A DNA stretch of 61,090 nt, filler included, from Sphacelaria rigidula (Eukaryota): the NCBI GenBank assembly GCA_964200075.2. It is 6 parts of 6 records of this genome, joined end to end, with 100 filler letters (N's around TTAATTAATTAA, not from the genome) between each part and the next. Parts side by side here need not be neighbours in the genome. Positions count along the whole stretch, not along the records: positions 30,597 to 40,694 come from CAXNAA020007148.1; 5 more parts are not named here. The stretch is one strand, 5' to 3'. Shown in pieces: positions 1 to 58,640 of this stretch. The notes below the pieces were generated by a model. That model had not been told where the DNA came from. It made no database searches and saw only the letters and a list, made by a program, of their open reading frames with translations. The stretch's first letter is position 1. Each line of letters begins with the position of its first letter. The position numbers and the translations under genes were made by a program.

Positions 1-1747
1 AACCATGCGTGTTTGGAAGTTTCCCGCGGAAATCATGAGCCATGCACGAGGCCCGAGTGGCGCAGGATGACCATTCTGACCAATCACGGTCGTCAAAATG
101 AGCACTTTTGTTCCTGTAGAGGTACACAGCTGGTAGACACATTCGCCGTTTACCCTCGAATCTCATTTTAAAGATGCCAAACCAACCATAGATTATGTAA
201 CCAAAAAACAGGTGTTCGAGCATCTTCGGTACAATGTGTCTGTCCGTTCAGTACTGCCTGAGCGTCGTACTAGCTCCACACCTCCATCTGGTATAAAACG
301 TCATGGCGCAACACGCGAGCGGCGGCCACGAGTATTCTACGTACATAGATGCAGACAAGTGCTTCGACGGTGAGGCGACCGCCATCGCCGAGCAATTGCC
401 CTATGGCAGTCAGGGGCGTTCGCGGCGGTAGTAATGGTGCGATGTCCAAACGCACACTGCGTACACTCGGCACGTTCAACATTGTAAGATCCAGTACGCC
501 GCAGACCGCACGCGCAGCCGCGGCACGGTACACTACAGACTGCACAGCAAAAATATGAGGCGTAATAATCACGTGGTCGACAACCACACCACCGTCTGTG
601 TTCTAACTCTCACAACTATGTGCCTCTTATGCATTCCCGGTCCCTTCAGCCGTAGAATAGGCGTTTTGAGTTGTGACAAAGGAATGCTTCTGAACCCAAA
701 AAGTGGAGTGTCTACCTCATTCTACCAACGGGGGGATCGCCGTTCAAGGGTTAAGCTTATTCGTGATCTATCGATAGACTTGGCGTGCATATGGTTCCAT
801 ATTGAAGTTGAGATTCCATATCCTGCGTAGAGGCACTGGAGCACCAAATCTGGATTGAGCATCTCGGTTTCGAGGATTGCGCATCGAAACTTGCCATGGA
901 CTATCGCAGGGGCATCACGAAAACAGTTGGTGGCCATATCGATTTTCGTTTTCACGTGATAGGCCGTTTCTTACGCAAAAGACAACGAGAAGATACAGTA
1001 AGGCTTCTTACCGTTCGTATTTTCACAAAACCTAAGAAAACACATGCGAGCCGATAAACCCTTTACGAGATTAGCGCCCCCGGCTCGTGTTTTTGAATCC
1101 AATCGAGTTGTTTAATATTTTTCGATCGTGCTTTTCAACAAAAACGGCTAGATGAGAAACGCCCACCAGTGCACCCAAGAGGAACTACGCACAAAAACAG
1201 CCGATGAAAAAACTTGAGGATGGAATTTTTTATTAAGGACGAGGAAGACTCAAACAGTTCGTGGTAAGTGCCCATGTGTATTGTTCCCCGAAAATATTTC
1301 GGTAGTTGCGAAGGGCACCGCCACGATTTAGAAGCGACCTCGACCAATTTGGTAGTGCACTGGGGAGAGCGCGGCAACGGTTTGTCATGAATGCGATCTC
1401 AACCAGGTTGATAGGGCACCAGGGGGAAGCTGTCGACGGTCCATCACTATCTTCTATCCATACAAAATATCCTCTCCCTTACGTGGGTTGCTCGTGAGAA
1501 AAATGAGTGTGTGTTGCTAGTGGGCAAAATTACGGCCATCATTATGTGATCTGTTCCTGCACGTCCTATTCGGCCGGGTACCCCCAGGCGGCAGCTCTTT
1601 CTCTCCATCAACGGTGGGGGATGCATTTTATATGGATGAGAAGCAGACGAGGATATACTTTTGAGCTTAGATATTCGGAATGATCAACACAAAGCACTTT
1701 TCGAATCGAGCTGGCAGTGGGAGGTCACGCAGACAAAGGGAAATCGT

Positions 1748-2129
1748 TAGAACTCGGAAATGGTACAAGTTACAACTGACCATTAGCATTAAAATGGTAA
1801 TAATGGTAATGGTTATATGAAACGTTTGGATAATGGTTTCAAACCATTATCTACCGTTACTGGCTTTATAAGCCATTACCGGCCATGTATGCTACATACA
1901 GCCCTTGAAAGTTGGCCTAAATTCAACATATTTTATAGCTATAGTGAAGGCACATCGCGTACAAACGTGTCTCCGGCCCGGCGCCTCCAGCGGGGCCCTC
2001 CGGTGGCGCCTCCGGTGGACCCCCCTCTGCTGGAGGGGGCTTTTTGGCCCGCGGCTGTGCCGCTCGATGACCAAACCATGATGTACCATTTGACTGGTTA
2101 ATTGTTAGACAAACCATTTCCGAGTTCTA
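1748..2129. mobile_element. hAT-like MITE
   Basis: 17-bp perfect TIRs TAGAACTCGGAAATGGT...ACCATTTCCGAGTTCTA; flanks gaaatcgt/ggaatcgt form an 8-bp TSD with one mismatch; TAG ends plus 8-bp TSD fit hAT; no coding capacity. Confidence 0.8.
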
Positions 2130-4053
2130 GGAATCGTCCACGCGACGACTCGTGAGGAAGAAGACGAAACCACGTTGTTGCACTGCACCGTACAGCACTC
2201 CTGCGCTGGTTGTTGTGCTGACCTCGACTAAACTTTTGATCTTACTGACTACGGCCGGGGTGGTCATGCATCACAAATCAGCCGCATGCGTTTTAGTCAC
2301 TATCCTCACACTTATGTCCCCAAACACTTGTGTCCCCTCGTATGGGGTGAAATAAGGAGGTGAGTTAACGAGAGTTGGGCTACATTCTATTCATGTTTGA
2401 CATATTTTACAACTATCACTCACCCGAACCCTATCCCCAACCCAAGGCATACCGAGAAGAATATGGCTGTTTTCGTGATGTCCCTGCGATAGATTCTCCA
2501 TGGCAAGTTCTGATGCGCAACCCTCGAAACCGAGGTGCTCAATCCACTTTTACTGCTCTAGTGCCTCTCCGCGGGATATTGTATCTCAACTTTTATGTGG
2601 AATCTTATGCGCGCCATGTCTATCGATACATCACGAATCAGCTTAGGGTAATGGCATCGATCGGTTCCCCGTGCCCAAAGGAATGTTGACGTCAAAAACT
2701 CACACAACCCTTAACTTTCTGCCTTCATTATTACAGCTGTTTTTATACCAGTTGGACCGCCGGGGTGTGGCGGAATTCTTGTGTGCGGCATACTTGTTTA
2801 CATTGCGCAGGATGATCATTCTGATATTAGGCGTTGTATGTGTTGTCCTCTGCACGTAGGACGTAGCTGTCCCGACATTCGTATGATTGCCCTGGCATGT
2901 GGCATGGTTACCTTAGAACAAGGCATGAGTTGTTTTTGTCCGAATATTCCGCAAAAAGGGGTAAGGATGGGTAGACACATAGGTAAGCTTGGGTTTGGAT
3001 GTTTCGTTACGTTATGTATTATAGCTGTTTGTAAGACTGTTCTTTGATCTGTCGACCAGTAAATACAAGTAGGACAAGTAGGACATGGCTGGAAAGCTGT
3101 CCTCGAGTGGCGTCACGTAGACAACACAGACTTGGCTACATTTTCCTGTCACTCTTTCGGCGCCCTTGCAATACCGGCGTATAACAGGGTTCTGTTCCAC
3201 ACGGATAAAACACGCGCCAACGACGTTGACAGGAGCACCTCCTCAGTTTCTTTCGTCCACCCGCAGTCGGTAAGGAGTTCATACTGCCTCGGCATTCAAC
3301 GTATACAGTATTTCAGGGGTAAACACAATAGTACGTACTGCACTCAAGATATTGTTTGGACGGAAACGTCGTACCAAGAGTGTGAGGCTCCCATATTTCC
3401 CGGTAGCTAAAACTTAATACCTGGAGCGTTACTTTTTCGTGTTCACCAGGTGGCAGCTACGAAGGACAGATCTGCCGAAACTCTCCCGGGTCCGAAGACA
3501 GTCCGTGCGAAGCAGCGACTATTGTAAGAACTCCGTAATTGGCTGGTCATACACTCTGAGTTCAGCTCAGCGCTACGGCTACAGTACATGTCATCGCTGC
3601 GATACCCTCAGGGGCATCCAAGTAAGCAGTGTTACGTCAAGTACTGATGCTTCTCTAGTTTCCGCGTATCTTAGCTTCTCATAAATGTGCAGGGAGGAAT
3701 ACGTACGAACGCTACCTACTGTAGAGAGATCATTCGTTTCGGGTGCATGATATATATACAACATATATATTATATATTTGTGCATTAAGTTGATCGCACG
3801 CGAGAGTACGCGAACGGGTGAGGATGAGATAAGCTAATTCATCAACCATACCGTATGTTATTGTCAGACCCGATACACCGAACCCTCTGCCAACGTACCT
3901 AGAGCGCATCACAGCAGATTTGCGTACCACGGCATGCCGTTCGCACAAGATTTTCACCTCCGCCGATCTTGTTGGTCACAATAACCAATAAGTGAACTGC
4001 CCGAGTTTGAAATGTTCGGCTTGCGGTCACGCACTCTCCACGCATGCAGACAG

Positions 4054-4570
4054 GTCGTGAATGCCGAAGACGCGGAGCGGCTTGCCCTTGAGGCGGAAGC
4101 GAAAAAGCAAAGTGACCTTGACACTACGACACGTCAGGTGAGAAAGTACGCTCTACAATTGCAGAAACCGTCCTCAACAGTTTGGCGGCACGTTTCTTAC
4201 ACGAAGGTGATGTGCACACGGGCATTGCGCCAGAATCTGGTCTGTGTGGGAGAGCTTCATTACCTATTTCTCGCTTTACCGATTGTGCTTCATATTTGCC
4301 GCGAGAAGGCTGGTGTCCTTCAAACGTGTCGGGCTAAGTACAACTGACACTACTTCGTACATCTCCGAGGTAAAGGTCCTCCGATCGAGGGGCCCTTTGG
4401 TGTCACCCTGGTTTTTACTTCTTTCCTTCCCGCATGCCTCTCGCAACCCGTCTCTTCCCCAACTCTCATCTACCCGGCGCAAGTCATTCGTGCGATACTC
4501 AGCAGATGCGGCGAAGGCAGCAAGACCGAACCGGATCAACCGGAAGGGCAATACCACCGCGTGCGTGAAG
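4054..4570 (+). pseudogene. candidate exons of a decayed spliced gene, product unknown
   Basis: cag|4054-4137|gtgag gives VVNAEDAERLALEAEAKKQSDLDTTTRQ; 4306-4369 (weak GAG acceptor, in-frame TGA); cag|4503-4570|gtagg gives ADAAKAARPNRINRKGNTTACVK; phases are compatible; no family recognised. Confidence 0.3.
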
Positions 4571-5258
4571 GTAGGTATGAATGGAGCATGAACTCTGGGG
4601 TCTTGAAACTGGTAATGCTTCTGCACACTCAAGAACTGTTCCCGCGAAACTATTGATATCTCTCGAAGCTACCTGCCATTGGAGTTTATGCAGAGAGGGA
4701 CCGTGGAACTCCCGGCGTTGGTTGCTTTCATGCCCAACTCAGGGTTTTGCTAGACAGGTCCGCAAACATACGTAGCATAGTGGATATGTTGCGGTTCTTC
4801 TCGATCATGGGCTATTGAGGGGTGGCTTAACTGAAGGGTATTTGGATGAGTTCGCAAGTGAAGGGACGGTACCTTACACGCAGTTGGCGCAGCGCGACAC
4901 GTCCACCTCAGACCACGTGGCAAAACATGTCCACATGCCGCGTCGGAACTTTTTTCGTCTGTTGCAGTATCAATCCACGCACGGCGAACGGTGCGGAGGG
5001 GAGGGGAAAGCTTGCGAGTTGCAATGCCAAGATTATGACTATACTACAGGACCCACGGCTACCCTATGGAGTATGGGAGGATTTGTGCCGAGAGCTTCGG
5101 ACCAAGAGTCTTTCGGACGCAGTGTGAGTTGCATCGGAAAACCTCGATAAAGCACTATTCGGTTATCGTGTGATGGTGTAATCTATAGTCGGTAGCCACG
5201 GTGGCGTTGCTACTATTCCGACCGAAGCCCTGTTGTTGTGGATTCGGCGTACCACTCA

Positions 5259-10099: not shown

Positions 10100-10199
10100 N
10101 NNNNNNNNNNNNNNNNNNNNNNNNNNNNNNNNNNNNNNNNNNNTTAATTAATTAANNNNNNNNNNNNNNNNNNNNNNNNNNNNNNNNNNNNNNNNNNNN
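10100..10199. other. artificial linker
   Basis: N44-TTAATTAATTAA-N44, stops in all six frames. Confidence 0.97.
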
Positions 10200-14411: not shown

Positions 14412-15554
14412 TCACGATCTAGGATTCCTGTATAAGCCATACATACCAGCTGAGCGAGTGTCGATCGTGCCCCGCCAGGATGCCCCACTTCGCATATGGG
14501 TGAAACTTTGCAGCAGCGCCGCGCTGCTGCTTGTGCTGGTACACGAAACACTCGGATCCCAAGTACGAAGCCGGTCGTAGTGGAAACGCTTCCCTGTCAG
14601 CCTCTCACCTGGGGTGTCGCCCCCGAGGTACTCGTGGGGCATCCCTGCGGTCTTGAATGCCGCACCCGCCACTGCGAAGAACGAGTAGTCCTCTCCGCGT
14701 CCCGCTTCCACTAGTTGGTTGCGTGCTGTCCTCATCAGTTGTTTAACTGCACACTAAGCAATTCCATTACTTTGCAGTGTACTTGCCGGTGAGCAGTGCC
14801 ACTTGATGAGGCGATTGGTCAGCATGCGTTGAAACTTGACTGACCGTTCCCCAGCGCCGTCTCCGCTGATGCATTTGATGGCCACTCCCTCACGAGCCAT
14901 TTCGTCGATGTAGGCTCGCGTGACAGCAGCGGTAGCATCTCGTGTCTGGACTCCAACAACGTGAGTGTCTCGACTGGCCTCGTCCACGAAAATCTGAAAG
15001 TGTTTCATGCCCGTGACGTCGGCGTGGAAAGGCCCTTCAAGATCAGTGTGCACGACGTCACCGGGTGCTTTGGAACTCCTGCCATCGCAGCCATAGCTGA
15101 GCGCCTCGAACTTACATTCCTTGCAGATCCTGCAGTCCATCTCGGACGCCACCGTGGTATCAATTACATCGACCATCTCACGTTTCTTGAGGTGTTTCAT
15201 GGCAGCCGGATCGATGTGTCCAAAGGTGCCGTGCCACTGCTTCAATGTGAGACGCTGCTTCTTATTTGCGAACGAAGCGTGCGCCGACGCCGCATGCTTG
15301 CTATTCCCCCGCAGGGATTCAGACGGGGTCAGGAACCCTTTTTTCTCTGCTAGAGGGATCTTCGGACCATCCTTTCTGAACCGAAGGTAGCCCTCCTTCC
15401 TGCCGGAACCCACGAATTCTCCTCTGTCACGCCGAATCGTGCCGGTACTCAGCAGCAGACATGGTAGTCCAGGGACCCAAAGTACGTCCTTCCGTTTGAC
15501 CTTTGCCGGAGCCTCCTTGCCCCAAACAGTCACGTGTAATGGGATATTTTCCAT
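14412..15554 (-). pseudogene. Copia GAG-pre-integrase/integrase with internal stop
   Basis: WHGTFGH...CRICKEC zinc-binding motif, VHTDLEGP, QIFVDEAS, ISGDGAGE, QSNGIA* then LMRTAR...TPGERLTG; the stop at 14754-14756 falls at the catalytic E position. Confidence 0.9.
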
Positions 15555-16634
15555 CGCCAGCGCCTGCAGCTGCCCCTTGTTCTCAAATGTACAGCTTCGA
15601 TTATTTGTACGCGTTCTTGAGATCCTGTTTCCTAGGGGTCATGTGGACGTTCGCTCCCGAGCCGCGGAGAGTTGACACCTCTGCGACTGTTGGTCGGCGT
15701 GCACACGGATACTACTCGCTCATCTTCGACACCACGTTCATCGTCATGAATGCCCTCGGTCTGTCCCTCCTTCCATTACTCCTGCCGTTTCGTGGACGAC
15801 GTGGGAATGTTTGTGCGGGGCTCATCCCCGGCGGTCGTTTAGCCCAAGGTTTGCCGTTAAGGTAGGAGCGGCATTCCCGCCACCTCTGGTTTTGCTTTAA
15901 ACGGTACGCGCATTGATGGCTATCGAGCGTCGAGTCGGCTTTGTTGCCATCGGTTCTCGGTTGGAAAGCTACCGCCTCGCCGCGGGGTTCCACGTCGGCC
16001 ATTAGGTATGTTGTGATGCTACGACTGTCTCTTTGAGCTCGTCGTACTTTATACCTGGCTGGGTCGTTAGCTGTATGAATACCTGGGAAGTGCATCCTTG
16101 ATCCCGAGTAGAAAGGCTGCCCTAATAGTCTCCCCGACTTTGGCGTTTCCAAGCGCTTCGACTACCCCCAGAAGGTGTTCACCTTCACCATAAAATCTGC
16201 TTATTATTCTGCAGGGTTGCTGCATTGGAGATCCCGCAATCTCCGTCCCAATTCAAGTAGTTACAGAGGCCGCTCGTCCTGTGCGCGTCCTCCGTAGATC
16301 CATTCCATCTCCAGCCAGGCTTCCCTGCCGTCGGGGTTGCCGCCGTGCTCGCATCGTGCGACGATGGCTGCGGCTGACCCTTCCGTAGCCTGTGTCAGGA
16401 GGAATCACACGGGCCGTGTGTTGCGTTGGTGCGTTTCGTACGCCCTACGCTGGTCTAGTGTTGTGGTCGCCGTCGGAATGCTCGGTGTGGCGTAATCCGG
16501 TCGCAGAAGAGAGTATAGTCCCTTCATCCCTGCGTGTCCAGCGATGGAGGGTCTCCATGCGTCCCATGTTTCTCGCTAAGTCCCATGAGCGCCCGTTCAG
16601 ATTGACAACTCGCATTAGTCTACCTCCATTCGTT

Positions 16635-20298: not shown

Positions 20299-20398
20299 NN
20301 NNNNNNNNNNNNNNNNNNNNNNNNNNNNNNNNNNNNNNNNNNTTAATTAATTAANNNNNNNNNNNNNNNNNNNNNNNNNNNNNNNNNNNNNNNNNNNN
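20299..20398. other. artificial linker
   Basis: N44-TTAATTAATTAA-N44. Confidence 0.97.
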
Positions 20399-20732
20399 GA
20401 CGTGAGTTGACGCGGTGCGGGAGTGCTGACCCAATCCGCCAGACCAAAATGGAAGGCACGTACCGCGGGAGAGACGAGTCGATCCCTTGATACCACGGAC
20501 TCATCCCGAGAAAGAGGAGGAGGTTCAAAGTGTGAGGAAAAACAAAAGTTGTCGCATTATTTTCGTGGAGTGTTGATAGGGCGTCGACCTGCTGCGACAT
20601 CTCTTACTTTGCCGGAACATCATGAAGCGAATGGATGTCACATGCATGACGAGTGTGGTAACTGTACCGGTTGACTATCCCGGTCCGTTGATACTGTTAT
20701 CATGTACCGTCCATATGATGCCACCATTACAG

Positions 20733-20876
20733 GTGTTGGCATTGCACCAGTTTGACTGCGCCCGTGCCAACAAAAGTACGTGTGCGTGGGGACTGGAAGC
20801 GCGTGTTCCCTTCCTAGACGTGGACTTCGTGGACTTGGTGATGAGCATCAGCCCAGAGGACAAGGTCATCAAAAAG
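20733..20876 (+). CDS. asnB: asparagine synthetase (glutamine-hydrolysing), internal exon
   Basis: cag|[48 protein letters not shown]|gtacgt; DCARANK and EARVPFLD are AsnB motifs; phase 0. Confidence 0.95.
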
Positions 20877-20977
20877 GTACGTCTGCACTTTTCCCTTCTT
20901 CATGTTTTGAATTGAAGAGATGGTACTGTAGTGTTCCCAAGAAGATAATGAGGTATTACGGCTCTCAGTCTAATAGT

Positions 20978-22075: not shown

Positions 22076-22222
22076 CACCGCAGAAAATGACCGTCCTTGA
22101 TTGCTCAAGTATGCTTTTTTCGGCATGGTGTACCATGCTGCACCATACTGCTACAGCGATGGCAAGGTGTGAAGAAAACGTCGTGTCTCTCTTTGCGTCC
22201 TGCATCCGAACTCCCACTGCAG

Positions 22223-22381
22223 GAGGAGGGCAAAATCGAGAAGTACATAATGAGGAAGGCTTTCGATACACCGGAGGATCCCTATCTCCCGGAAAACATC
22301 CTGTACCGACAGAAGGAACAGTTCAGCGACGGAGTCGGGTACAGCTGGATCGACATGCTCCGAGAGAAGGCGGAAAGCGAG
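22223..22381 (+). CDS. asnB: asparagine synthetase exon
   Basis: cag|[53 protein letters not shown]|gtgtgt; contains [16 protein letters not shown]. Confidence 0.96.
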
Positions 22382-23099
22382 GTGTGTTGTGGACTGGAAG
22401 AGGTGGCGTACTGTAACTATAACTATATCTGTCAAGTGTAACAAGGGCTTGATGCATGATACTCCAGGTAGAGTGGAGTACTCGGGACTTGCGGCAGTGG
22501 ACACACATTCCAGGCATGCACTCGGGGAGTAACTGTATGTACTCCATACTCTCAAGGAGTTGATACTCCATATACTCTATTGTTCTCTGCGTGCTCTCGA
22601 TGTTTTGCCTCATGGGGGGTGATTTTCCTCTAGAAAGTTGTCTAAGTTGCATCGTACGTGGGCACTGCAAGTACTGTGTAATGGTGCGGCTTCTACAGTT
22701 ATGAGTGGGAATAGCGGGCCAATTTTGGGTACTATATTTCGGAAAAATGAATCGTGAACTCTACATGCGTAAGAACTGGACCGTATTAGGGCGAATCATA
22801 TCAATATAAAGTACATGCGTCACCTAAAAACAACGATCTGGCTCATATGAAATTTACTTCAAACATATGTTGAAGCCTGTGAGTGGTCGGTGTTGAGATG
22901 ATTTTGTTCCTCCGGATAACTCGCTCCAGATCGATGAATGGAAATTCTTGGTTCCCTAGTGTCCAGCTCCTGTACTAGTCTAGAAGCACACGCCCCCGTG
23001 CTGCCACCCCACGTTCACCGCCATTGAAGAATAAAAAGACAAGAACACGAACAGCAGCAGTTGTGGCTGCCACACACCAACGTAACTGCAGGGAAGGGC

Positions 23100-30496: not shown

Positions 30497-30596
30497 NNNN
30501 NNNNNNNNNNNNNNNNNNNNNNNNNNNNNNNNNNNNNNNNTTAATTAATTAANNNNNNNNNNNNNNNNNNNNNNNNNNNNNNNNNNNNNNNNNNNN
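30497..30596. other. artificial linker
   Basis: N44-TTAATTAATTAA-N44. Confidence 0.97.
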
Positions 30597-31029
30597 AACT
30601 TTGTTTTAGGTTCAAAGGATTGAGGGACGGAGCTGGTGGTTTGCACCGCCCTCCAAGGTCACTCTCCTTCACTACCATCGGTTCTCCGCTTTGACAGGAA
30701 ACTGCGAGTTCTGCCCTTGTTGGCCAAATAAGCGCCTAATCAACCATTCATCTCACTGATTTTACTTGAAAGCTGCGGAAGCAAGTGGTCCACTCAGCCA
30801 CGGTGCAACCTCTGCATACTACTGTTCGCTGAACAGAAGTTGGCCTGTCGTACGGACAGTGCCACGACCACGACTTATTTCAACATTCAATATGTCGCCT
30901 CGGAGGTGGGGACGAAAGAAAGAGGAATCACCGACACTACCGCAAGTGTCAAGTGCAGCTGAACCTGGCTGCACCACCGTCCAGTTCGACTCCGACATCA
31001 TGCATCACAGTTGTGAGTGGCTGACGCTA

Positions 31030-31560
31030 CCAACACCGGGTCATAAATCATGTTAATTGATTGTCACACTTTAACCGACCATCCCGGGGTCCAGCCCAGG
31101 TGTCATGATGGGCCTACCCAAAAACCGAACTCGAGCACGCTCTGAAGAAGAAGGAAATCGAAACAGGAGAATACAAACAGAAAAAGGGAAAAAGAGTGGT
31201 CGAATAGAACGACATATCAAACTAATTTGTGACAAAAAAATAATAAAAAGTCAACACAAGCAGGGCACAGAATGAGATAGCTACCCCAAGGCAAGAAAAG
31301 GGAAAACAAGAGAAGTATACCAATGGAATAAAATAGAATGAAATGAAATGAACAAATACTGTACATCTTCAAAACTAGGCAAGGATGAGAAATGGTACGA
31401 CATCCGCACCACTGCTGAAGGGCGTGTGCCGTCGTACCGATCTCTGTACAAGCCATGACTACATAAAACAACGCTACGGCTACGCGCGCTGACCACAACA
31501 ACGTGGTACAACTAGTCATACCGTCTCATCTCTCCAGGCGACAACTGTGGTGGATCTGCC
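31030..31560 (-). mobile_element. 3' tail of a non-LTR retroelement family
   Basis: gggtagg..atcatg..acc..ggctgga motif also seen at ~26400 (+) and ~51080 (+); T-rich body and aatc-type tail. Confidence 0.45.
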
Positions 31561-31915
31561 GACATGAGGCAGGTAACTCTCGGTGGCATCCATGAGGGGG
31601 CCGCACGCGACGACTCTTTCAATACACGCGACGACTCTTCATGTTATGAGCCGTACCCCAAAAATACATGCGGAGCCGGGTAGATTATCCGACACACGGT
31701 CGCGGTCGCCCACAGGAGAGGAATCGAAGCCAGATAAAGACCGCTAGTTACACCCCCGGCGCATCTTTGCGTAACATTTCCACAACCGTCAGCAGTCATT
31801 TCATGTACCGCTTCACCCGCGCGACGAAGTCGGCACGCGGCAAAATGTAGCCGGGCTTTCCGGAACCAGCTGGCACGCTTCGGTGAGGACACCTCATCGT
31901 ATTTGGAAAATGAGT

Positions 31916-32331
31916 TCAGTAGTAGCTTTCCGATTCGTAGTGGATGTACTGGGAGTCGCCGGGGTGGTAGTAGTCGTCGTAGTAGTAGTAGTGGTCATCG
32001 TCGTCGTAGTGGTAGTCATCGTCATCGTAGTGGTCGTCGTCATCGTAGTGGTCGTCATCGTAGTGGTGGTCATCGTCGTCGTAGTCATCGCTCTTCTTGC
32101 CTTTCTTGCCCTTCTTGCCCTTCTTGCCCTTCTTACCCTTCTTGCCCTTCTTACCCTTCTTGCCCTTCTTACCCTTCTTACCCTTCTTACCCTTCTTGCC
32201 CTTCTTACCCTTCTTGCCCTTCTTGCCTTTTTTACTCTTCTTCCCCCTCTTCTTGCTCTTCTTGCCCTTTCTCCTCTTCTTACCCTTCTTGCTCTTTTTA
32301 CCATTTCTCGAAAGCCCTCGGCGCTCTTCGC
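31916..32331 (-). CDS. terminal exon of an unknown polyampholyte protein: RXL motif, (KKG)15 block, Asp/His/Tyr-rich block
   Basis: ctcag|gc acceptor; open frame GEERRGLSRNGKKSKKGKKRRKGKKSKKRGKKS(KKG)15KKSDDYDDDDHHYDDDHYDDDDHYDDDDYHYDDDDHYYYYDDYYHPGDSQYIHYESESYY-TGA; repeat variants GGC/GGT, AAG/AAA and GAC/GAT are synonymous in this frame. Confidence 0.8.
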
Positions 32332-32672
32332 CTGAGGTTTCACACGCACGAGGACCGCGTAATCAGAGGGTCGCGTGAGTGTTCGAGTATCTTTACGATT
32401 AGGGTTGGTGTTCTGTGTTAGTTTTGGGGTGAGTGTCGGGGGCGTTGTCCCGGCAGGGACGTGCCCGATTTTGAAAAACATTGATCCTGTACGCACGAGA
32501 TCGTTCCAAGCACGACAATACAAACGAGTAAGCGGTATAGGGGAGTGCAGGCGACGCGTTCACCGAAAACCAAAACTCCCACGGGGCCGTGCGAGCGAAG
32601 GGTTCAGGTCTGGACCGATTCAAGTGCTACGAAGACTCCCGCTATATCACAATGCTACTCGCTCGAGGGGAT

Positions 32673-32883
32673 TGTAATGCGTGAGAGGACAGCGTGCTTA
32701 GAGGACCGCATTGGAATTTGAACATCTCCATGGTTAGGGCTATGGTCAGGGTTAGTGTTGGGGTTATGGTCAGGGGCGTAGTACCTGCAGGGACTGACCC
32801 GATTGGTTTTGAAAAACGTCGATGCTGAGGTGTTCTGAACTACGGCGCGGTCCTCTAAGCGCGCGGTCCTCTCACGCATTACA
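32673..32883. mobile_element. TGT...ACA MITE (Ginger-like), best-preserved copy
   Basis: ~37-bp TIR tgtaatgcgtgagaggac.gcgtgcttagaggaccgc; 5-bp TSD gggat; internal ggttagggc/ggttatgg repeats. Confidence 0.85.
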
Positions 32884-32896
32884 GGGATTACCATGA

Positions 32897-33080
32897 GTGT
32901 GCGTTTTGTGTGTTGTCTCCAATATATTCTGACGCCAGTCTACCCCTTTCGGGATATGTGGGCACATCAGCCGGGGTCACACAAGGTCAACACAGGAGCT
33001 CGTGCTTCATTCGATTTCAGTGCCCCACCTTCCAACTGCTGTGCTTGCCTCCATGTTTTTGCTGGGCGGGGGGAGCAGAA
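32897..33080 (-). mobile_element. degenerate SINE fragment
   Basis: tatgtgggcacatcagccggggtcacaca matches the SINE reverse complement. Confidence 0.7.
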
Positions 33081-33305
33081 TCCATGGCCGTTATATATGT
33101 GCGATGCAATGTGGAAGGGAAAAGATGCTGAGGATTACAGATGTTTTACGCACAACCGTACTCCGACGCAATCCTGTCATCAGGTGGGTCAGCAGTTCAC
33201 AGTGATATGCTTACATCGGATCCATTCGGGGAACTGAGGGCTGTGGTGTGGGCAAAATGTAGGACCTTTCCATCTGGCCCAGCTCGTAATTGATTCGTGA
33301 TCGTT

Positions 33306-33512
33306 TGTAATGCGTGAGGACCCCGTGCTCAGAGGGCCGAATCGTAATTCGGAACACCTCAGGATCGACGCTCTTCAACATCAATCGGGTCAATCCCTGC
33401 AGGTACCACGCCCCTGACCCCAACCTCAACACCAACTTTAATCCGAACCCCAACCATGGGGATGTTCAAATTGCGATGCAGTCCTCCAAGCACGGTCATC
33501 TGACGCAATACA
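33306..33512. mobile_element. TGT...ACA MITE copy
   Basis: same TIRs; flanking duplication atcgtt. Confidence 0.8.
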
Positions 33513-33853
33513 ATCGTTTCGCAAATTACACTATTACGCAAGAGGGTAGCCATGAAACGCATCTAAACACCCTGCCCCATTACGACCAAGGTTACAAACA
33601 TAGCCGTAGGACGGATGTCGTAAGTAAGGCGGTGGCGGATGTCGTGAGCGCCCGCGACAGCACTGGTGATGGTATTATGAGTGTCGACAGTACAGTAGTA
33701 GTACAACCCTCAACTGTCTCGACTCAATAGTGCTTCACCATACACCGACATGTGCAGCACTCGTGAATGACTAGCGGGCGCCGAGGAACACTACCCGTGT
33801 GCCCAACGCTGTCCACTCTGCCAGGTTGGTATCCGGAGGCTGTTTACGGTCCT

Positions 33854-34092
33854 GTGTGTGAGTTGCCGTCCCATATATTCTGCACGCCGGTCTACACCTT
33901 CAACCTTTCAGTATATGTGGGCGCACCAGCCAGGGTCACACAAGAGGAAGGTCAAGACAGGAGGTTCTCTCGTTCTCTATGTGTTTGTTTTCAGTGCAGT
34001 GCTCCATTTTTCTTTCGAGATGCTTGCCATTATTTCTTATCGCGAGAGGGGTTCAGCAGTCCCTTTCCCTCGTCGACAGTTTAGTCGAATAT
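33854..34092 (-). mobile_element. SINE 3' part
   Basis: atcgcgagaggggttcagcagtccctttccctcgtcgac matches the SINE reverse complement. Confidence 0.8.
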
Positions 34093-34881
34093 ACTGCTGT
34101 CCCCAAAAGAACGCTAATCCGTACAGTACTGTACTGCTGAGGCCGTTATACCCAAATACAAGTGCACGGCGAATGAATTAGGTCGTTCCGGTCATTTATT
34201 TCCCCCCTGGAAATGAACACGTTACCTATCGTATAGCACGGCCTTGTACATGCTCTCCCGCGCTGTACGGGTAACACCGCATGGGTAGGCGCAGAGTACG
34301 AGCGCAGAAAAACACGGCGCGACTTTCAACTGATTGACACCGACCCTGAAAAGTTGACGGATCAACACCTACGTGGGAAAAATAAATTAGAACAAATCTA
34401 GGGTGTAAACGTGAACAATCCAGTCGTTCTCACTCCTATCCTCGAGTTTTGCCTCTTTTCCGAACCTCTTAATGACGTTATCGGCAATACGCACCTTGCG
34501 TACAGCAGACAGAGACATGGCACCGCCGAGGATCCAACCTACGGAACTGCGCATCCACAGCACGCAGTACGTCGTACCACAACCTACCGCTGTAACCTCG
34601 TAGTAGAGGTCAAGACTGTGGTGTCGAGTACAGGGTTGGGACGCTGTTTGGGCATTAGAGGAAGGTGTGTTTTACTCCAGACTCGGTGCTGTGCAATACA
34701 GCGGCGACGGCCTCGACGAAAAATAGCAAGATCAGTTCACTCATTTGCGAGTCATTTGTCAAGTTACGACAGACGACCATTCCTGTCTAATATTTCCACC
34801 GAACAGTCCCCTCATCCTCCAGCATTTTTCAAGTTAACGACAGACGACCATTCCCGTCTGTAATGTATTAACATGATCGCC

Positions 34882-35064
34882 AGAGGGGTCCCGCAGTCAA
34901 CTTCCCCTCGTCGATCGTCCGGTCGAATTTCGTCTACCCAAGACGTGGTCGCTTTCCACTTTTGGGCAGTGTGTGAGAAAAAATCCAAGATCGCTTCGGG
35001 AATCGAATAAACTGAACGATCAGAAGGTTAGGAGGTTATCAACTGAGCCCTTGGGGCGACCGGC
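34882..35064 (-). mobile_element. SINE 5' part
   Basis: aactgagcccttggggcgaccggct is the reverse complement of the tRNA-like head. Confidence 0.8.
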
Positions 35065-35499
35065 TCCATCCATTTCTATTTCCCCAACCCAACACCGGTG
35101 TCACAACTCGAAGTCCCCGTGCCGGTTCACCTTGGGTGTTTAGTATTCATATTTGGTACGTCGGATTCGGATAAAAATATATTCAGACTAATGCCGAGAT
35201 GGCCCCCCCACAACACGTGCACCGGCACCATCTAACGAACCGGCTGCGATCCCACTTTTGGGCTCGTTGGCAGCAACTTCAACAATGACAAGCGTGTAGC
35301 AGTCCGAAATCAGCCATAACGCCCAAATCAGTCGCGTCGTGCGGCACGAAACAAGCTTCAACGGCAGTTATCATCATCGCGTCCGTGCACGTTTTTGGCC
35401 GGTTTTGGGGGGGGGGGGGCTATCTCAGCAGCAGTCTTCACGATGTATTGAACACTCCATCATCGATATTGCTGATAAATGCCCGGAGGATTCAAATCT

Positions 35500-35965
35500 T
35501 TGTAAAAAATCTTTGTATCCACACGAAATTCTTCGAGTATGGCTCAATTCCTTCTCTCACTGGTAGGTATTGACAAGTACTGCACGCCCAAAATATTTGG
35601 GTTTCCATCACCAAAATCTTGCGTGAGAGGACCGCGTGGTTTGAGGACCGCATCGGAATTTCAACATTCCCACGGTTGGGTTGGGGTTAGGATTGGGGTT
35701 AATATGATGGTCAGGCACGTGGTACCTGCAGGGATTGGCCCGATTGGTTGTGGAAAGCGTCGATCCTGGGGTGTTTTCAACTACGGCGCGGTCTCCCAGA
35801 ACGCGATGCTCTCACGTATTACATCACGGGGAATTGAGGTGATCCGATCGGATCACCGAAATAAGTGGAACCATATCTCGAAGATTTGGTGTTGATACGA
35901 AGATTGTGTACCACGTCTCATCCTCAATGAACACTTCGTCTTCAATTTCCATGATCGCCTGTAAT
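35500..35965. mobile_element. foldback MITE (46762 family) interrupted by a TGT...ACA MITE (~35620-35823)
   Basis: ttcgagtatgg and ccatatctcgaagatttggtg family motifs flank a gcgtgagaggaccgcg...ctctcacgtattaca copy. Confidence 0.7.
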
Positions 35966-36040
35966 TGGTGAAAAATGAGGAGATTAAAAATATGAAAATC
36001 GGTGTCACTGCACCGCACGCACGACAGGGCATATCCTCAC

Positions 36041-36148
36041 CTTCAGCGGCTGACGCAAGTGTGATTACATCCCCTGGCATCGCTGCTGCCAACACCTCTC
36101 CATTTTGGGCTGCGGTGTCCGGTGCTATTGCAAGCGCAGCCGTGGGCT
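36041..36148 (-). CDS. candidate upstream exon of the KKG/DHY gene
   Basis: ttttgtgcacgtcag|...gaag|gtgagg; 108 nt, phase 1-1, EPTAALAIAPDTAAQNGEVLAAAMPGDVITLASAAEG; phase-compatible with the exon starting at 32331. Confidence 0.6.
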
Positions 36149-38120
36149 CTGACGTGCACAAAAATGACGGATCGACAACGAGCAGAAGCGACGCTTGTCA
36201 AGTTCAACTCATAAACGCACACCGCGGGCACATTGCTACGGGAGGTACTACAGTATTCAGCGTGAGACGTATGCAGAGTCCGTGATATCTAGTTTGTCAA
36301 AAATTGTACAAATTTGTTTTGCTCGAAAGTCATCAGTGACTCTTGGATGCCAAAAAATGGGCATTCAGAAGAATTTTCGACAATTTGAAGGAAAATTTGT
36401 CCGCGATCAATGATGGGTGTCTCACGGGCTTGACCGATCTTCGGGGGTCCTGCGAGAATACGACCCCAGGCTCTCGCTTTTCGGTCTTTTCGGTGGACCG
36501 ACTCGATTCGGATCATATAATGAAGTAAAACAGGAGTGTTCTTTGATATCCTACCTAGTCACTGGGCTCAAGCCGAACACTACGTTCTTCATTCCATTTG
36601 CGGTCAGAAAGACCCTCCTGATAAACGGGATCTCTATCCGCTATCGCCCTCACGACACCAATTTGGGCGGTTATGATATGAGCATGGTTTGTTTATCCCG
36701 CCAAAACGTTCGACGCTAGCACGTCGAGTACTCATGGTGAGCGTTGCGCGAAAAATAATAGTAAGTCATCCACAGAAAATGCTAGACTGAGGTCTGTGCA
36801 GTATAATGGGGAAAAAAATCCCGATCGTTTTTGTTGAGAGTTCCATACGTCTTCATTCATCTGAACACAACGGGGTATCCAATCCTTTTCGCCCAGAGAA
36901 GGCCAACTTGAGCGCTGCAGCTTGAGCCCGGCCTACGCTTTATCCCTACATCTACCGGCGCTACCACTTTCAAGTAGTAGTGACAAATAGCACTCCAGAA
37001 AAACTCCAAAAATAAAACAGTTACTAATTTTGAACACTTCTGATGCTGACTACCATACACCCATTATAGAGCACCAAGCAGAATAAACGATTTTTGTCAT
37101 GGGGTAGACTTACCCACAGAGTGCTGTACCACCCAAAAAATGCCCCGTCGGTGCCACATCGTGGCACTCCACCTTCGACAGTTCCGACCCCTCGCATCGT
37201 GTTCCGCTTTCTTTGTGACGGCGGCAACGTATCCACCCAACAGATGAGAATCTACTCCCTCCGGAGTTACTTTGCAGTATGACCTCCCTTCCAGCTTTCA
37301 GTTTTGAACAAAAACCGCCCTCTCGAAATGCCACCCCCACTGCATTTCCTGTGGAATCACCAATAGGGCACACGATACGACTCACCACCCGTCGCCGAAC
37401 TTGTCGACAGAACGACGGAGAGGACGATCCCCACGACGCATAGGAAAAGCTTCTTAGCGGACCACATGGTGAACTGACAATCCTGTCCGGCAGAAACGGG
37501 GAATACGAACGACAAGGGTGACCACCGCGTTCAAAAGCCCGCCGATAAAGGCTCGATTGACCACACGCATGAGGACGCGTCAAGTACGGGGAAGAGTGCA
37601 CGGTTGTCTGCTGGCACTGTGTCATTCACCGCGTGTCGGTGCAGTGCGACTGTTTGGGGCAAGGTCGTCCAGGGTGTGGTGCTAGACGAAAATCATTTGC
37701 AATTTCCCGACTAATCGCTTCTTCCCACTATACGCCCAGTCGCTGATTGTAAAAACTAGTGATACTGTCGTCCCACGACATGAAACACGTGGGACACCAA
37801 CACAGTAGGTACGAAAGCGCGCTTTGGGGGCCAAAACGCGTCTTTTTCCCATACCGAAATTGAGTCGAAAGTATGGTTTCGGACACACTCGGGGGAAAAG
37901 TAAGGCTACGATACCCCAAAAGTAGTTCCGGGGAGGTCGGGAGGGATGCGTTCGTCCACGTGAAAGTTATCCGTAATCAATTCAGTCGGGGAAAGCACAG
38001 CTTCCGAGTTTGGCCTACACTGTTTTCAATCCCATTTTCGAGGATCCAGGTTATCATTTGTTTCCCTACCGATGACGTTCATAGCGTGAGAGGACCACGT
38101 GGTCAGAGGGCCCGTGGTGG

Positions 38121-39735
38121 TGTAATGCGTGAGAGGACCGCGTGCTTAGAGGACCGCGACGTAGTTCAAAACACCTCAGCATCGATGTTTTCAAAAGCAA
38201 TCGGGCCAGTCCCTGCAGGTACACGCCCCTAACCATAACATCAACACCATGGGAATGTTCAAATTCCGATGCGGTCCTGTACGCACGTGGTCCTCTCACG
38301 CGTTACAGCATAAAATATCGCTCACCCCCGCAACACGCGCACACCCGAACTCCATGCAAGCAAGTGGTGTAATGCGGGAGACGTCCCATGCTTGAGAGGC
38401 CGCGACGTAGTTCACAACACCTCAGGATCGGTATGTTTCGAAACCATCACACCAGTCCCTGCAGGGATCACACTCCTGGCCCCAACCTCAGACTACCCCT
38501 GACCTTAACGCCAACCATGAGGATGTTTAAATTCCGGTCCTTCAAGCACGCGGTCCTCTTGCACATCACAGTGGGACCCAAATGGATACCCACGACCAAC
38601 AGACTGGACATTCCCAAGTTCGAGATTGCCTTTGTTTCCTGCACGGCGGGATCACGTCAAGAGCCGTGACTAGGACGTCGATACATGGATTGTTCAGCAC
38701 AGCAGAAGGGTATAAAGCGGTGCTACCCATATTCAACCGAAGGGTGTTCCGAAAACTTGGATGGACCACAGTACTAGAGCTTGACTCTCAGCATCAGCTG
38801 AACTGCTTTCGACTTGATCCACGGAACCTTGGGTGCCAGGCCAAGGCCAGACATTCTCTTGCACAGTTTGTGAGTAGAGGTACATACTATAATGCGTGAG
38901 AGGACCGCGTGCTGGGAGGACCGCATCGGAATTTGAACATCCCTATGGTAAGGGTTACGGTTACGGTTAGTGTTGAGGTTATGGTCACGGGGTTAGGGTT
39001 GTAGTCAGGGGCGTGGTATCCAGGGACTGATCCGATTTGTTTCGAAAAAAAGTCAATCCTAAGATGTTTTGAAATACGCCGCGGTCCTTCAAGCACGCGG
39101 ACCTCTCAAGAATTACACGGCTTTCACACTCAACGTGTTGTATACTGTCCCGCACGCCAACTTTCCGCCCTGCTGGTCGCGACATTCCAGAAGAGAATCG
39201 AGCGAGAGCACGTTAGGAAGGGATGAACTGTTTCGAGGTCGGTACCAACACTCACGGGTCTGCTGTACCCCAAAACAGCACACGGAGAGGGGGGGATAAG
39301 ACGGGTAACCGCGGTTGGTCCAAGCGTCCAGAAGTATTATACATAACAACCGAGATGAATGAAACAGGAACATGCTTTGCCCACTAGTCCAGACGAGGAA
39401 ACTCAAGCACCGGATTTGTGATACGTGAGAGGACCGGGTACTTGAGGGACCGCGGCGTAGTCCAAAACACCCCAGGATCGACATCTTTTTACAACAATCA
39501 GGCCAGTCCCTGCAGGTACCACGCACCTGACCCTAACCCCAACACTGACCCCAACCCCAACCCCAACCCCAACCATACGGATAATCCCATTCAGATGCGG
39601 TCCTTAACCCTTAGACGTCGAAGTTAGTCTTCTGTTGAGTCGGCATCAATTTCAAGTGAAAAAAAGTAGGCATGATCCAGAAAGACTAATCTCGCGGTCT
39701 AAGGGTTAAAGCACGCGGTCCTCTCACGCGTTACA
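38121..39735. mobile_element. four further TGT...ACA MITE copies (38121-38307, 38368-38570, 38888-39117, 39417-39735)
   Basis: shared TIRs; TSD gtgg at the 38368 copy and ggatt at the 39417 copy; both orientations. Confidence 0.85.
39608..39705. mobile_element. 98-bp piggyBac-type MITE
   Basis: TTAA|CCCTTAGAC...GTCTAAGGG|TTAA inserted in the TIR of the 39417 MITE. Confidence 0.85.
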
Positions 39736-39751
39736 GGATTGATCCACTTAC

Positions 39752-39837
39752 CGTTCCGTCGGCGAGTCCTCAACGAAGCTGTCGAAGGCGGAACACACAC
39801 GTTCGTTGAGAGTGATCTTGGTTAGGGAGTACGAGAT
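39752..39837 (-). CDS. candidate exon
   Basis: ctcctgctag|ISYSLTKITLNERVCSAFDSFVEDSPTER|gtaagt; strong donor; only this frame is open. Confidence 0.5.
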
Positions 39838-40165
39838 CTAGCAGGAGCAACATATGCCGGCGGGGACGTACGTCAGGAATCCATACGAATTAGTTTGCTC
39901 ATTTTGCCCCGGCACCTGGACGAAAATCTTCACCACATCGATCGACCGCTCTCAGTCGCTGCAGTTCACGCGAATTCGTCGTCGTATGTACATCTCGGTT
40001 GACCGTTCGACCGCGAGAGTAGGTCACCTCCTGAATCGGCATCAATTTCACTTTGAAAAAGTATCTGCGATCAAGATGGATTACCCGCAGCACCGTCCAA
40101 GAGTTAACCCCGGAAGATCTTCTCCCTGAACCTTCGACAGTGCGCGCATGTGTGCGCGCATGTAC

Positions 40166-40274
40166 CTTTTGGTCTTTGAATAGTCGGATACGGCGGAGAT
40201 GAAGGAGACCATGACCGGGTTGTCTTCTTGGTCAAGTGGATTGTGCATGCACCCAGGGACAGTGGCAAATACAC
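40166..40274 (-). CDS. candidate exon
   Basis: gcag|GVFATVPGCMHNPLDQEDNPVMVSFISAVSDYSKTKR|gtacat. Confidence 0.4.
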
Positions 40275-40625
40275 CTGCGCGTAGCCAACGCCGCATGAAG
40301 ACCCCGACCGAGTCCACACGACTTGCACTTTCAATCGGGCTCAGCAGCAGCAATGTACTGTACAGGATAGTACGATGAAGTACAGCAATATGTTGCCGTC
40401 CTCTCTCTGACTACATGTCGCGTGACCGACTGTCTCTTGTCTGCGTGACCTTCCAATGCCAGCAGGAAAAAGAAAAGCCTAATAAGTGTTCTTTCAAATA
40501 TCAGAGCTCGAAATCCTATGGTGCACACTAAATAAATCCGAATGTGCGGCCCCAGTTGTGCACATATAATCCGTCCGCCATATCATCAACCTCATTGGGG
40601 CTTCCCAATAGTCATGGTTGACGTA

Positions 40626-40694
40626 TGTGTGTGTGTTGTCGTCCCATTTATTCTGGGCACCAGTCTACAACTTTCGGTGTATGTGGGTGCATCA
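40626..40694 (-). mobile_element. SINE 3' end cut by the linker
   Basis: tgtgtgttgtcgtcccatttattctgg...tttcggtgtatgtgggtgcatca. Confidence 0.75.
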
Positions 40695-40794
40695 NNNNNN
40701 NNNNNNNNNNNNNNNNNNNNNNNNNNNNNNNNNNNNNNTTAATTAATTAANNNNNNNNNNNNNNNNNNNNNNNNNNNNNNNNNNNNNNNNNNNN
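40695..40794. other. artificial linker
   Basis: N44-TTAATTAATTAA-N44. Confidence 0.97.
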
Positions 40795-50892: not shown

Positions 50893-50992
50893 NNNNNNNN
50901 NNNNNNNNNNNNNNNNNNNNNNNNNNNNNNNNNNNNTTAATTAATTAANNNNNNNNNNNNNNNNNNNNNNNNNNNNNNNNNNNNNNNNNNNN
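50893..50992. other. artificial linker
   Basis: N44-TTAATTAATTAA-N44. Confidence 0.97.
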
Positions 50993-56749: not shown

Positions 56750-58640
56750 GCACACAGCGAGTGCATGATCCAGGATCCCTCTGCGAAACAGATCAAGGAA
56801 GACTGGGAATCAGGAGAGCCACCCCAAGCCCCACGACATCCGAGCACGGTGGGCCCGTTCTGGAAAGATGTTATTTTGAAGGACCACATGCAACCCGACT
56901 TGTTATTGTCGTGGATTAACGGTGTAGACGTACACACACTCGTTGACACATCAACGACATGACGTTTCCAAGAACGCTCCTTTCACGCCGCCGACTTGAC
57001 GGGTGTGGAGTTACCGAACCACGTGAATCCACAACACGAACTGCTTCTCGACTGCGAGATCAGGAGACTTGTCGATAAAGGCTGCGCGGTACGATGGGCG
57101 GAAACAGCAGACGTTCACGCGCAACCCAAGCCACGCATGTCTCTCCTGCTCGGAGTAGAACCGTCGAAACCACGCTCAATATGGGACGACCGTTGGCTGC
57201 ACCTCATGTGCAAGGATATGCTCCGTTCATCTTGAACGGGGCAGAAAAGGTGGCCCAGTGCTCGTGGCAAGGTGCTTACCAGGTTACGATGGACCACAGA
57301 TCAGGTTTTCACCATATGCCCCTCGACCTCACATCATGGGAATACTTCGGTTTTGAGTGGAAGGGCGAATATTACGCCTGGACTGTCTTCTGTTTCGGTT
57401 GGCGCAGTTCCCCCTATATCCACCACACACTGAGCGAAGCGGTTGCACAATACCTACGACCCCCGACAAGTACCAGTACTGGCGTCGATCGACGATTTCT
57501 GGCTAACGGGAGTCCGCTCGACAAAACATGACCCACCTAACACGCAGAAACAGGCAGCAAGCTCAGCAGCCCTCCTGGCGCTGTCCGTCTTCCATCATTG
57601 TGGATACTTCGTGTACATCTCCAAATGCGAGCTACAATAGAACCCACTACGAAAATTGTGTTCTTGGGAATTCTGTGCGACAGAGACAACTGCCGGTTTG
57701 CAGTCCCCCAAGATAAGCTCGTCAAGTTAGAGCGCATCTCAGACGATGCCCTTGCTACCGGATTCATCACGTTCACCATGCTTCAGAAGCTGGCGGGAAA
57801 GTGAACGAGCATGTCGGTTGCAGTACCAGCCGCCAGTTTGTACACATTCCACATGTACAAACAGATCGCGATATACAGAAAGACGGGAGGAAAACATATC
57901 ACAGCAACGGTAGAGCTCTCTGTAAATGGTGGTCTTCGGAACGAGAGTCTCATGGCGGGAACTCCGAGACAAGATGAATGGGGCGGCATGGTGCAGCCCT
58001 AGTTACCACATCATCGCCATAAACAGTGCGACAGACGCCTCCTCACTTGCATGGGGGGGAATTGTTCGAGGCCCCTCCGGCGTCGCCTTCACAGCGGCTG
58101 CCGCCTTTCCCGCTGAATGGGTGACAGCGCACATCAATGTCAAGGAAACGTTCGCACTGCAAGAGGTCCTGAGACTGTTCTGCTTAAAGCAAGCTGATCA
58201 AGTGGCGAGGACTACCCTGTCCATAGATGTCGACAACAAAACCATATACCATGCCTTCAGGAAAAGTAAAGCCAGGGACGAACGCATGCACACACTCATC
58301 CGACAGCTCTTCTGGATGCAAGTCAGACAAGACTTTACACTCATGTGTCGATGGGTAGACTCGAAGACGAACTCAGAGGCAGGCAGCTTCTCAAGACCAG
58401 GCGCCAACGAGCACGTGAGGCTGAGTACAAAATATTCTGACCAGTTATGGTTTGAGTGGGGCGGGTTCGACATGGACCTGATGGCATCCACAGCATCAGC
58501 CCAGAAGATTCCAAGGAATGCACCGGGTGAAGGAACAGTTCTGCCCTTGTACTCGAGATACCATACAGCAGGATCACCAGGGTAGTCGACGTTCTTAGCT
58601 ACGACGTTAGCGAGCGGCTCATCATGTCGGACGCAGAAAC
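56750..58640 (+). pseudogene. DIRS-order (tyrosine-recombinase) retrotransposon pol: RT-RNaseH-methyltransferase-like, decayed
   Basis: KPRSIWD, MDHRSGFHH, FGWRSSP, SIDDF, FLGI (RT); TDASSLAWG, HINVKE, VDN, WVDSKTN..A..FSR (RNase H); FDMDLMAS...LYSRY..GSPG (MT-like); multiple stops and frameshifts. Confidence 0.9.

Follow-up and report, generated by a model that had tools for sequence, protein, structure and literature searches.

A spliced minus-strand gene of the brown alga Sphacelaria rigidula with a predicted lysine-block and acidic-block polyampholyte as its putatively secreted product

A long tandem repeat in the genome of the brown alga Sphacelaria rigidula (positions 31916–32331 of the DNA analysed here) raises the question of whether such a low-complexity stretch belongs to a gene and, if so, on which strand, in which frame and for what kind of protein. 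An earlier note on this DNA had proposed a hidden minus-strand exon with its acceptor at 32332, encoding a peptide with a silaffin/cingulin-like architecture. The window, that is, the whole stretch of DNA that was analysed, has 61,090 nucleotides (nt) and consists of six chunks of ~10.1 kb, with a linker (44 N, TTAATTAATTAA, 44 N) between each chunk and the next; for this reason, features in different chunks are not neighbours, and the true neighbourhood of the locus is chunk 4 only (30597–40694). Our analysis shows that this stretch supplies the coding portion of a gene's last exon; the gene lies on the minus strand, is transcribed and has at least four exons and three GT..AG introns. The hidden exon is thus real and begins at the predicted acceptor.

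The minus-strand frame that had been singled out is free of stops over 148 codons (31916–32362) and contains no Met. Its residues follow the order given in the earlier note: EERRGL, a K-rich lead-in, a run of KKG units, and a block that opens with SDDYDDDDHHY and ends with YESESYY directly before the stop codon. The longest (KKG)n run has exactly 15 units (residues 97–141 of the predicted protein; nt 32099–32233). Tandem Repeats Finder described the Lys-coding part as 22.3 copies of a 9-nt period (32093–32296) and the acidic part as periods of 15–33 nt (31964–32090). A 17-nt KKG-coding pattern, searched with at most 2 mismatches, occurred 18 times in the window, always at this locus, against 0.01 in shuffled sequence.

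The evidence for transcription and splicing came from public sequencing runs. Nine runs share words with chunk 4, and contigs were aligned from four of them, here called X1, X2, X5 and X6. X1 and X2 are 'RNA?' runs of organism A from one study, X5 belongs to organism B, and X6 is DNA-like and from organism A; the 'RNA?' label of X1–X5 is a guess of the run listing, and none of the nine runs is on record as RNA. Three joints were found in the contigs. The joint 32330→36040 (cut +1, so that 32331 is joined to 36041) is present in X1 at depth 4790 and in X2 at depth 4348; the joint 36148→37386 is present in X2 at depth 3631; and the joint 37481→39751 (cut +1) is present in X2, again at depth 3631, where the shorter side of the contig has 51 letters. 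All three end with CT..AC on the plus strand, which is GT..AG on the minus strand. X6 shows none of these joints, and its contigs pass unspliced through the same places at depth 58–85. The absence of splicing at 32332 had been named beforehand as one of the results that would speak against the exon, and the junction was found in both X1 and X2.

Depth differed in the same direction. The exon-only contigs listed in X1 and X2 have depths of 480–4790, mostly 1177–4790, and the X1 contig that spans the pro-region exon (36040–36149) reaches 4790. Among the mainly intronic contigs listed in these runs, five of the six have depths of 3.2–4.6, and the remaining one, which lies over a dispersed repeat, has 123. 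Exon depth far above intron depth, together with the lack of the joints in X6, is the behaviour of RNA for X1 and X2, and measured against its introns the gene is strongly transcribed.

When the three coding exons are joined (Table 1), a single open reading frame (ORF) of 201 codons results, in the KKG/DDDHY frame. This is the longest ORF of the transcript model; the next one has 136 amino acids (aa). The first in-frame ATG is located at 37467–37465 and has A at -3; six codons ahead of its junction (39752), the upstream exon contains an in-frame stop. On the 3' side, an X1 contig of 1221 nt covers 30805–32025 with 0 differences at depth 1327, and X2 contigs cover 30807–31350 and 31321–31964 of the 3' untranslated region (UTR). 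The contigs stop at ~30805, at the edge of a dispersed repeat (the repeat depth of X6 goes up below ~30930), and no poly(A) site was called there. The introns of 1.2–3.7 kb and the long 3'UTR are in keeping with brown-algal genes. Taken as a whole, we consider this gene model highly probable.

Table 1. Position of the gene parts on the minus strand, of the second open frame in the last exon and of the linkers between chunks
Feature	Position	Strand	Basis or remark
Upstream non-coding (5'UTR) exon, 3' end	39752..39802	-	joint in X2; ...LR*GLADGT
Intron, 2269 nt, GTAAGT...GACAG	37483..39751	-	joint and splice sites
Exon, 97 nt: 15 nt of 5'UTR, ATG, codons 1–27 plus 1 nt	37386..37482	-	joints on both sides in X2
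Intron, 1237 nt, GTGAGT...GTCAG	36149..37385	-	joint and splice sites
Exon, 108 nt: Ala/Pro/Thr-rich, mildly acidic predicted pro-region	36041..36148	-	joints in X1 and X2; frame open
Intron, 3709 nt, GTGAGG...CTCAG, with several dispersed-repeat copies	32332..36040	-	joint in X1 and X2
Start of last exon, end of predicted pro-region, G-E-E-R-R-G-L	32312..32331	-	joined exons
Lys/Gly block, residues 71–143	32093..32311	-	composition; Pfam Collagen match
Acidic Asp/Tyr/His block, residues 144–201, ends YESESYY	31919..32092	-	composition
Stop codon TGA	31916..31918	-	sequence
3'UTR, at least ~1.1 kb	30805..31915	-	X1 and X2 contigs
Second open frame (internal ATG; R/A/V then M/T)	31894-32306	-	frame +1 relative to gene
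Linkers	10100-10199, 20299-20398, 30497-30596, 40695-40794, 50893-50992

The full ORF supplies the N-terminus that the last exon lacks. Residues 1–25 look like a cleavable endoplasmic reticulum (ER) signal peptide: they contain two Lys in the n-region and a hydrophobic core of ~15 residues, and the proposed cut has Ser at -3 and Ala at -1. Averaged over 9 residues, Kyte-Doolittle hydropathy stays at or above 1.9 over residues 10–19 and peaks at 3.29. An aromatic residue after the signal cut is expected in the plastid presequences of heterokonts, and because none follows the predicted cut here, a plastid route is disfavoured and the secretory route favoured. The putative pro-region (residues 26–70) has 45 residues, is rich in Ala, Pro and Thr, carries a net charge of -5 and ends with E-E-R-R-G-L. 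The RGL (residues 68–70, nt 32312–32320) is the only RXL of the protein and stands exactly between the pro-region and the Lys block, in agreement with the block boundary that had been assigned to it. Neither a membrane anchor nor a retention motif was found in the predicted product, and its 201 residues contain no N-X-S/T sequon.

The two blocks that follow are opposite in charge. Residues 71–143 (73 residues) comprise 45 K, 19 G, 4 S and 4 R, include (KKG)15 and have a net charge of +49, and residues 144–201 (58 residues) comprise 24 D, 16 Y and 8 H and have a net charge of -26. The product would carry a net charge of +18 past the predicted signal cut and of about +23 past RGL. The segregation of charge is extreme and far beyond that of shuffled sequences: sequence charge decoration is -21.4, against +10.8 ± 1.3 in 500 shuffles, and kappa is ~0.64, against 0.18 in shuffles. 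All 16 Tyr have Asp or Glu within three residues on either side.

The repeat itself was also expected to reveal which frame is used, since its variants had been described as synonymous in the KKG frame and had been taken as a sign of selection on this protein. The first part of that argument stood: GGC/GGT and AAG/AAA are silent in the KKG frame, where four codon types give two residues. The second part was weakened, because other frames do at least equally well and the variants do not single out this one. In the plus-strand frame that reads F, L and P, the same variants are fully silent too, with six codon types for three residues, and over the acidic block the D/H/Y frame has five codon types for four residues, compared with five types for three residues in each of the M/T and V/I/A frames. 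Five of the six frames are open over the Lys core and four of the six over the acidic block, and openness alone is no evidence for coding.

The reading that we prefer for this gene is that of a secreted block polyampholyte of the extracellular matrix. We infer, with good support from the N-terminus of the full ORF, that the product enters the secretory pathway via the putative signal peptide, and it may then be trimmed at RGL, by analogy with the RXL sites of other stramenopiles. Outside the cell it would be a disordered block polyampholyte whose net-cationic Lys block could bind and cross-link the polyanionic matrix of brown algae, namely alginate and sulfated fucans. The acidic Tyr/His tail could serve the polycation as an internal counter-ion, keeping it soluble or masked during transit, and could offer a handle for the binding of Ca2+ or other metals or for Tyr chemistry, such as sulfation or coupling that is oxidative or driven by haloperoxidases. 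Tyrosine sulfation, which prefers an acidic context, is proposed because every Tyr lies in such a context. As one statement that runs from the gene model through secretion to matrix binding or cross-linking, this reading stands at about even probability.

Several points weigh against it. The RNA evidence comes from one study and two samples, in runs labelled 'RNA?' by guess, and the strand was deduced from the GT..AG ends, as contigs do not show strand directly. The translated product is a prediction from transcript contigs and sequence alone, and its signal peptide was judged by rules of thumb. The last exon also contains a second open frame, a 136-aa ORF starting with ATG that reads R/A/V and then M/T repeats; nothing that we observed suggests that this frame is used. 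Cleavage at RGL is proposed by analogy. The function is read from composition alone, which would also suit a defence peptide, a mineral-directing protein or a Gly-X-Y repeat of the collagen type. Searches of the protein collection, HMMER searches and metagenome contigs yielded no sequence of an orthologue or paralogue, and what speaks for a conserved frame and conserved motifs comes from a few contig ends.

Among the other explanations, a masked cationic defence or antifouling peptide comes first in probability, although we regard it as unlikely. Here the polylysine-like (KKG)n block would be antimicrobial, would be kept inactive by the anionic Asp/Tyr/His domain and would be freed at the surface or at wounds by a protease that cuts at RGL, between the blocks or at dibasic sites. 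Host-defence precursors commonly pair a cationic peptide with an anionic pro-domain, and the signal-like N-terminus, the pro-region, the +49 block next to a -26 block and a transcription that is strong relative to the introns all suit such a precursor. However, the K block has neither an amphipathic nor a Cys-stabilised motif and no hydrophobic residues, protein and Pfam searches gave no similarity to named defence families, and a free polycation would be bound at once in a wall of alginate and fucan. It is also conceivable, though improbable in our judgement, that the transcript is real and its ORF untranslated or functionless, the repeat being a period-3 minisatellite in the last exon of a spliced RNA. 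Tandem repeats with periods that are multiples of three are open in most frames, no homologue was found in the searches made, and the codon bias may simply reflect the copying of repeat units; on the other side, the N-terminal part holds 70 non-repetitive codons that stay open from an ATG (A at -3) and make up the predicted signal peptide and pro-region, both splice junctions within the coding region keep the frame, exon depth is high and the sole indel seen measures 3 nt. A nuclear or nucleic-acid-binding basic protein with an acidic tail, which the earlier note had named as its alternative, is scarcely probable: K-rich stretches followed by acidic ones are common in long, probably nuclear proteins, but the hydrophobic signal-like segment at the N-terminus would route the protein to the ER. 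The same segment favours the extracellular interpretation that had been put forward, or a place in the secretory pathway.

The remaining explanations depend on resemblance to known proteins. An analogue of silaffins and cingulins, that is, an RXL-processed zwitterionic peptide that phase-separates and guides where a brown alga lays down silica or some other mineral, agrees with the signal-like start, with the RXL at the end of the pro-region, with K-x-x-K throughout (KKG)n, with the Tyr-rich acidic partner and with the silica deposition reported in wounds and sori of kelp sporophytes (PMC3434887). However, with only 4 S in the 73-residue Lys block the phosphoserine chemistry of silaffins is missing, the blocks pass only once from K to Y, and no homology was found, so that we consider a mineral-directing role quite improbable. 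A collagen-like protein, in which (GKK)15-16 (32099–32240, minus strand) would form a Gly-X-Y triple helix, perhaps only once neutralised by polyanions, appears very improbable, even though the Pfam model PF01391 matched residues 28–79 of the last exon at 33.9 bits (cut-off 27.2) and 42 of the 45 PDB sequences matched at E<=0.01 are named collagens or collagen-like peptides, alongside a fibril, a phage fibre and a chain named as a transporter. An uninterrupted Gly-X-Y run of ~15–16 triplets is present, but the residues that stabilise the helix at X and Y, Pro/Hyp or complementary charge pairs, are not: the block has no Pro, and every X and Y is Lys. In addition, a homotrimer of the 45 residues would carry roughly +90, neither a trimerisation domain nor any further Pfam domain was found in any exon, and the K-rich lead-in upstream breaks the Gly register. 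We therefore treated the Collagen match, and the PDB matches with it, as an artefact of Gly at a period of three.

How the predicted product relates to secreted repeat proteins elsewhere can be stated more closely. According to PMC4557024, diatom silaffins, frustulins, cingulins and silacidins share RXL as a general motif for processing; Lys clusters are paired with polyanions in silaffins, cingulins and silacidins; and cingulins have highly repetitive KXXK regions that alternate with Trp- or Tyr-rich regions. Compared with the features described there for silaffins, cingulins (CinY type) and silacidins, the predicted protein has a putative ER signal peptide (by rule of thumb) and a pro-region that ends with RXL (RGL 68–70), whereas in silaffin-like proteins RXL follows either the signal peptide or the pro-region, or stands where repeats end; its place here agrees with the former. 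It likewise shows clustered Lys with K-x-x-K, a polycation together with a polyanion, and a Tyr-rich region next to the Lys region. In silaffin-like proteins, however, KXXK is embedded in Ser-rich, phosphorylatable sequence, whereas here 4 S stand beside 45 K and 19 G; the acidic charge comes from Asp and not from phosphoserine, and there are no repeats delimited by RXL. Cingulins alternate KXXK and Trp/Tyr regions several times, whereas one Lys block and one Tyr/Asp/His block are present here. No sequence similarity was detected, and the host is a brown alga and not a diatom; a link to biosilica, which marks silaffin-like proteins of silicifying organisms, would be hypothetical here. The comparison with silaffins and cingulins drawn in the earlier note thus holds for KXXK, RXL and the Tyr-rich acidic part, and fails for Ser content, alternation and homology. 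Because its Lys regions are not Ser-rich and the protein lacks multiple alternation and shows no homology, we did not file it under silaffins or cingulins.

A second likeness is found in marine adhesives. The cement of the sandcastle worm and the foot proteins of mussels contain secreted, disordered polycations rich in Lys, Gly and Tyr that are paired with polyanions, and such coacervate adhesives condense through charge before they are cured through Tyr. These systems place polycation and polyanion in different proteins, with phosphoserine as the anion, whereas the predicted product would hold both in one chain with Asp as the anion; there is no homology between them, and the likeness is one of design. 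The RXLR-dEER effectors of oomycetes are likewise stramenopile secreted proteins with R-x-L tens of residues past the signal and EER adjacent to it, as is predicted here, and the RXLR motif was reported to be cleaved before secretion (PMC7540312). They differ in that their RXLR, which lies within ~40–60 residues of the signal peptide, is followed by dEER, whereas EER precedes RGL in the present protein (E-E-R-R-G-L-S), the fourth residue is Ser and not Arg, the downstream sequence is of low complexity and not a WY fold, and the host is photosynthetic and not a pathogen. Overall, we rated the predicted product as fitting a known kind, the secreted zwitterionic low-complexity matrix proteins.

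The search for relatives gave one borderline candidate. When the last exon was compared with proteins of 75–240 aa, a single match, P0001, was obtained (E 1.8e-3, among 8000 scored candidates); it is a 177-aa predicted protein from an ENA assembly. P0001 resembles the gene product in having a signal-like start, a short pro-region that ends with an RXL (REL), a K-rich block that ends with KKGKKGKKGKK and an acidic block with Y and F. In contrast to the gene product, its repeats are far less regular and its C-terminal third looks dissimilar to the rest. The match is driven by composition, no family was found for P0001, and homology is unproven. A profile made from the last exon and P0001, run against proteins of 75–310 aa, recovered P0001 and three compositional matches, none with this layout. 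An exhaustive HMMER search returned 8495 matches at E<=0.001; the best 150 of them are proteins of 534–4756 aa matched mainly on the K block, and these 150 were read as compositional. The ESM Atlas gave no usable match, and of 592 pattern matches in JGI metagenome contigs none was confirmed. The product is not among the 75–310-aa proteins of a collection of 5.8 billion proteins, and within the lengths searched the gene appears to be unannotated there. In the literature, the string KKGKKGKKGKK had no match, and at the level of abstracts no such brown-algal protein is described; the supplementary tables of 10.1101/2024.02.19.579948 might list one.

The contigs contain some signs of variants and related transcripts. 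The sole indel reported in the coding sequence is a deletion of 3 nt at 32102, in frame and within the Lys repeat; it was seen in part of the X1 and X2 contigs and also in X6, where one contig covers the position, which suggests that the length of the Lys repeat is polymorphic or differs among paralogues. A variant X1 contig with a loose end at 32188, read by hand, leads from ...GEEHRGLS directly and in frame to the KKG repeat, a hint of a paralogue or allele that keeps RGL at the block boundary. When contig depths in the RNA-like runs are summed, the repeat exceeds the unique 3'UTR ~200-fold. Summed depth does not measure copy number, but the excess fits several abundant transcripts that are related to one another. 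In organism B, a contig of 955 nt covers 31073–32030 with 10 differences and 3 gaps.

A broader version of the matrix hypothesis would place the gene in a larger context. A signal peptide, a pro-region, an RXL, a Lys cluster and a polyanion form a design that has so far been tied to silica formation in diatoms, and this design might be an older toolkit of ochrophytes that is also used in brown algae. In that case this highly expressed protein and its paralogues would be processed at RGL, modified at Lys and Tyr, and driven to phase separation by the opposite charges of their own blocks; the condensed phase that they would template outside the cell could be a gel of polylysine with alginate or fucan, or the silica reported in kelp wounds and sori. 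We regard this wider proposal as a long shot. If RXL processing occurs here, a cleavage signal of the secretory pathway would be shared by diatoms, oomycetes and brown algae.

The walls and adhesives of brown algae have been described almost entirely in terms of polysaccharides and phenolics, and to our knowledge few structural wall proteins of these organisms are known. Under the preferred reading of a secreted matrix protein, a signal-bearing, net-cationic protein that ends in an acidic Tyr/His tail would find its natural parallel in the complexes of alginate and polylysine known as biomaterials. It would also be a testable candidate for the agent that cross-links, cures or mineralises the anionic matrix. 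The locus is also an example of an extreme low-complexity gene, of a kind prone to be lost in repeat masking and gene calling, that can be recovered from splice evidence.

The introns of the gene contain copies of a dispersed repeat of ~180 nt, located at 32343–32470, 32678–32871, 33316–33494 (inverted), 35620–35793 and ~38121–38190. Over these copies the summed contig depth of X6 is 10^5–10^6, compared with 58–85 in unique sequence, which shows a very high-copy element; it is possibly similar to a short interspersed nuclear element (SINE) or a miniature inverted-repeat transposable element (MITE).

An Rfam scan of the whole window gave 0 matches, and Pfam searches of the neighbouring ORFs revealed only fragments of retroelements. 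There were two such fragments, both below the Pfam cut-offs: 14757–15638 on the minus strand matched GAG-pre-integrase (E 2e-5), and 57079–57531 on the plus strand matched reverse transcriptase (E 2.4e-4). In chunk 3, two plus-strand exons (20580–20912 and 22091–22438) encode parts of a glutamine-hydrolysing asparagine synthetase whose best matches, at 88–90%, are brown algae; if all chunks belong to one genome, a brown alga is therefore the most likely source on this evidence too. For one of the exons, the best identities are 90% to Ascophyllum nodosum and to the record Undpi1, which we take to be Undaria, followed by Ectocarpus with 88% and Discosporangium with 80%; among the remaining named records with at least 90% query coverage, identities are 73–85%, and none reaches 100%.

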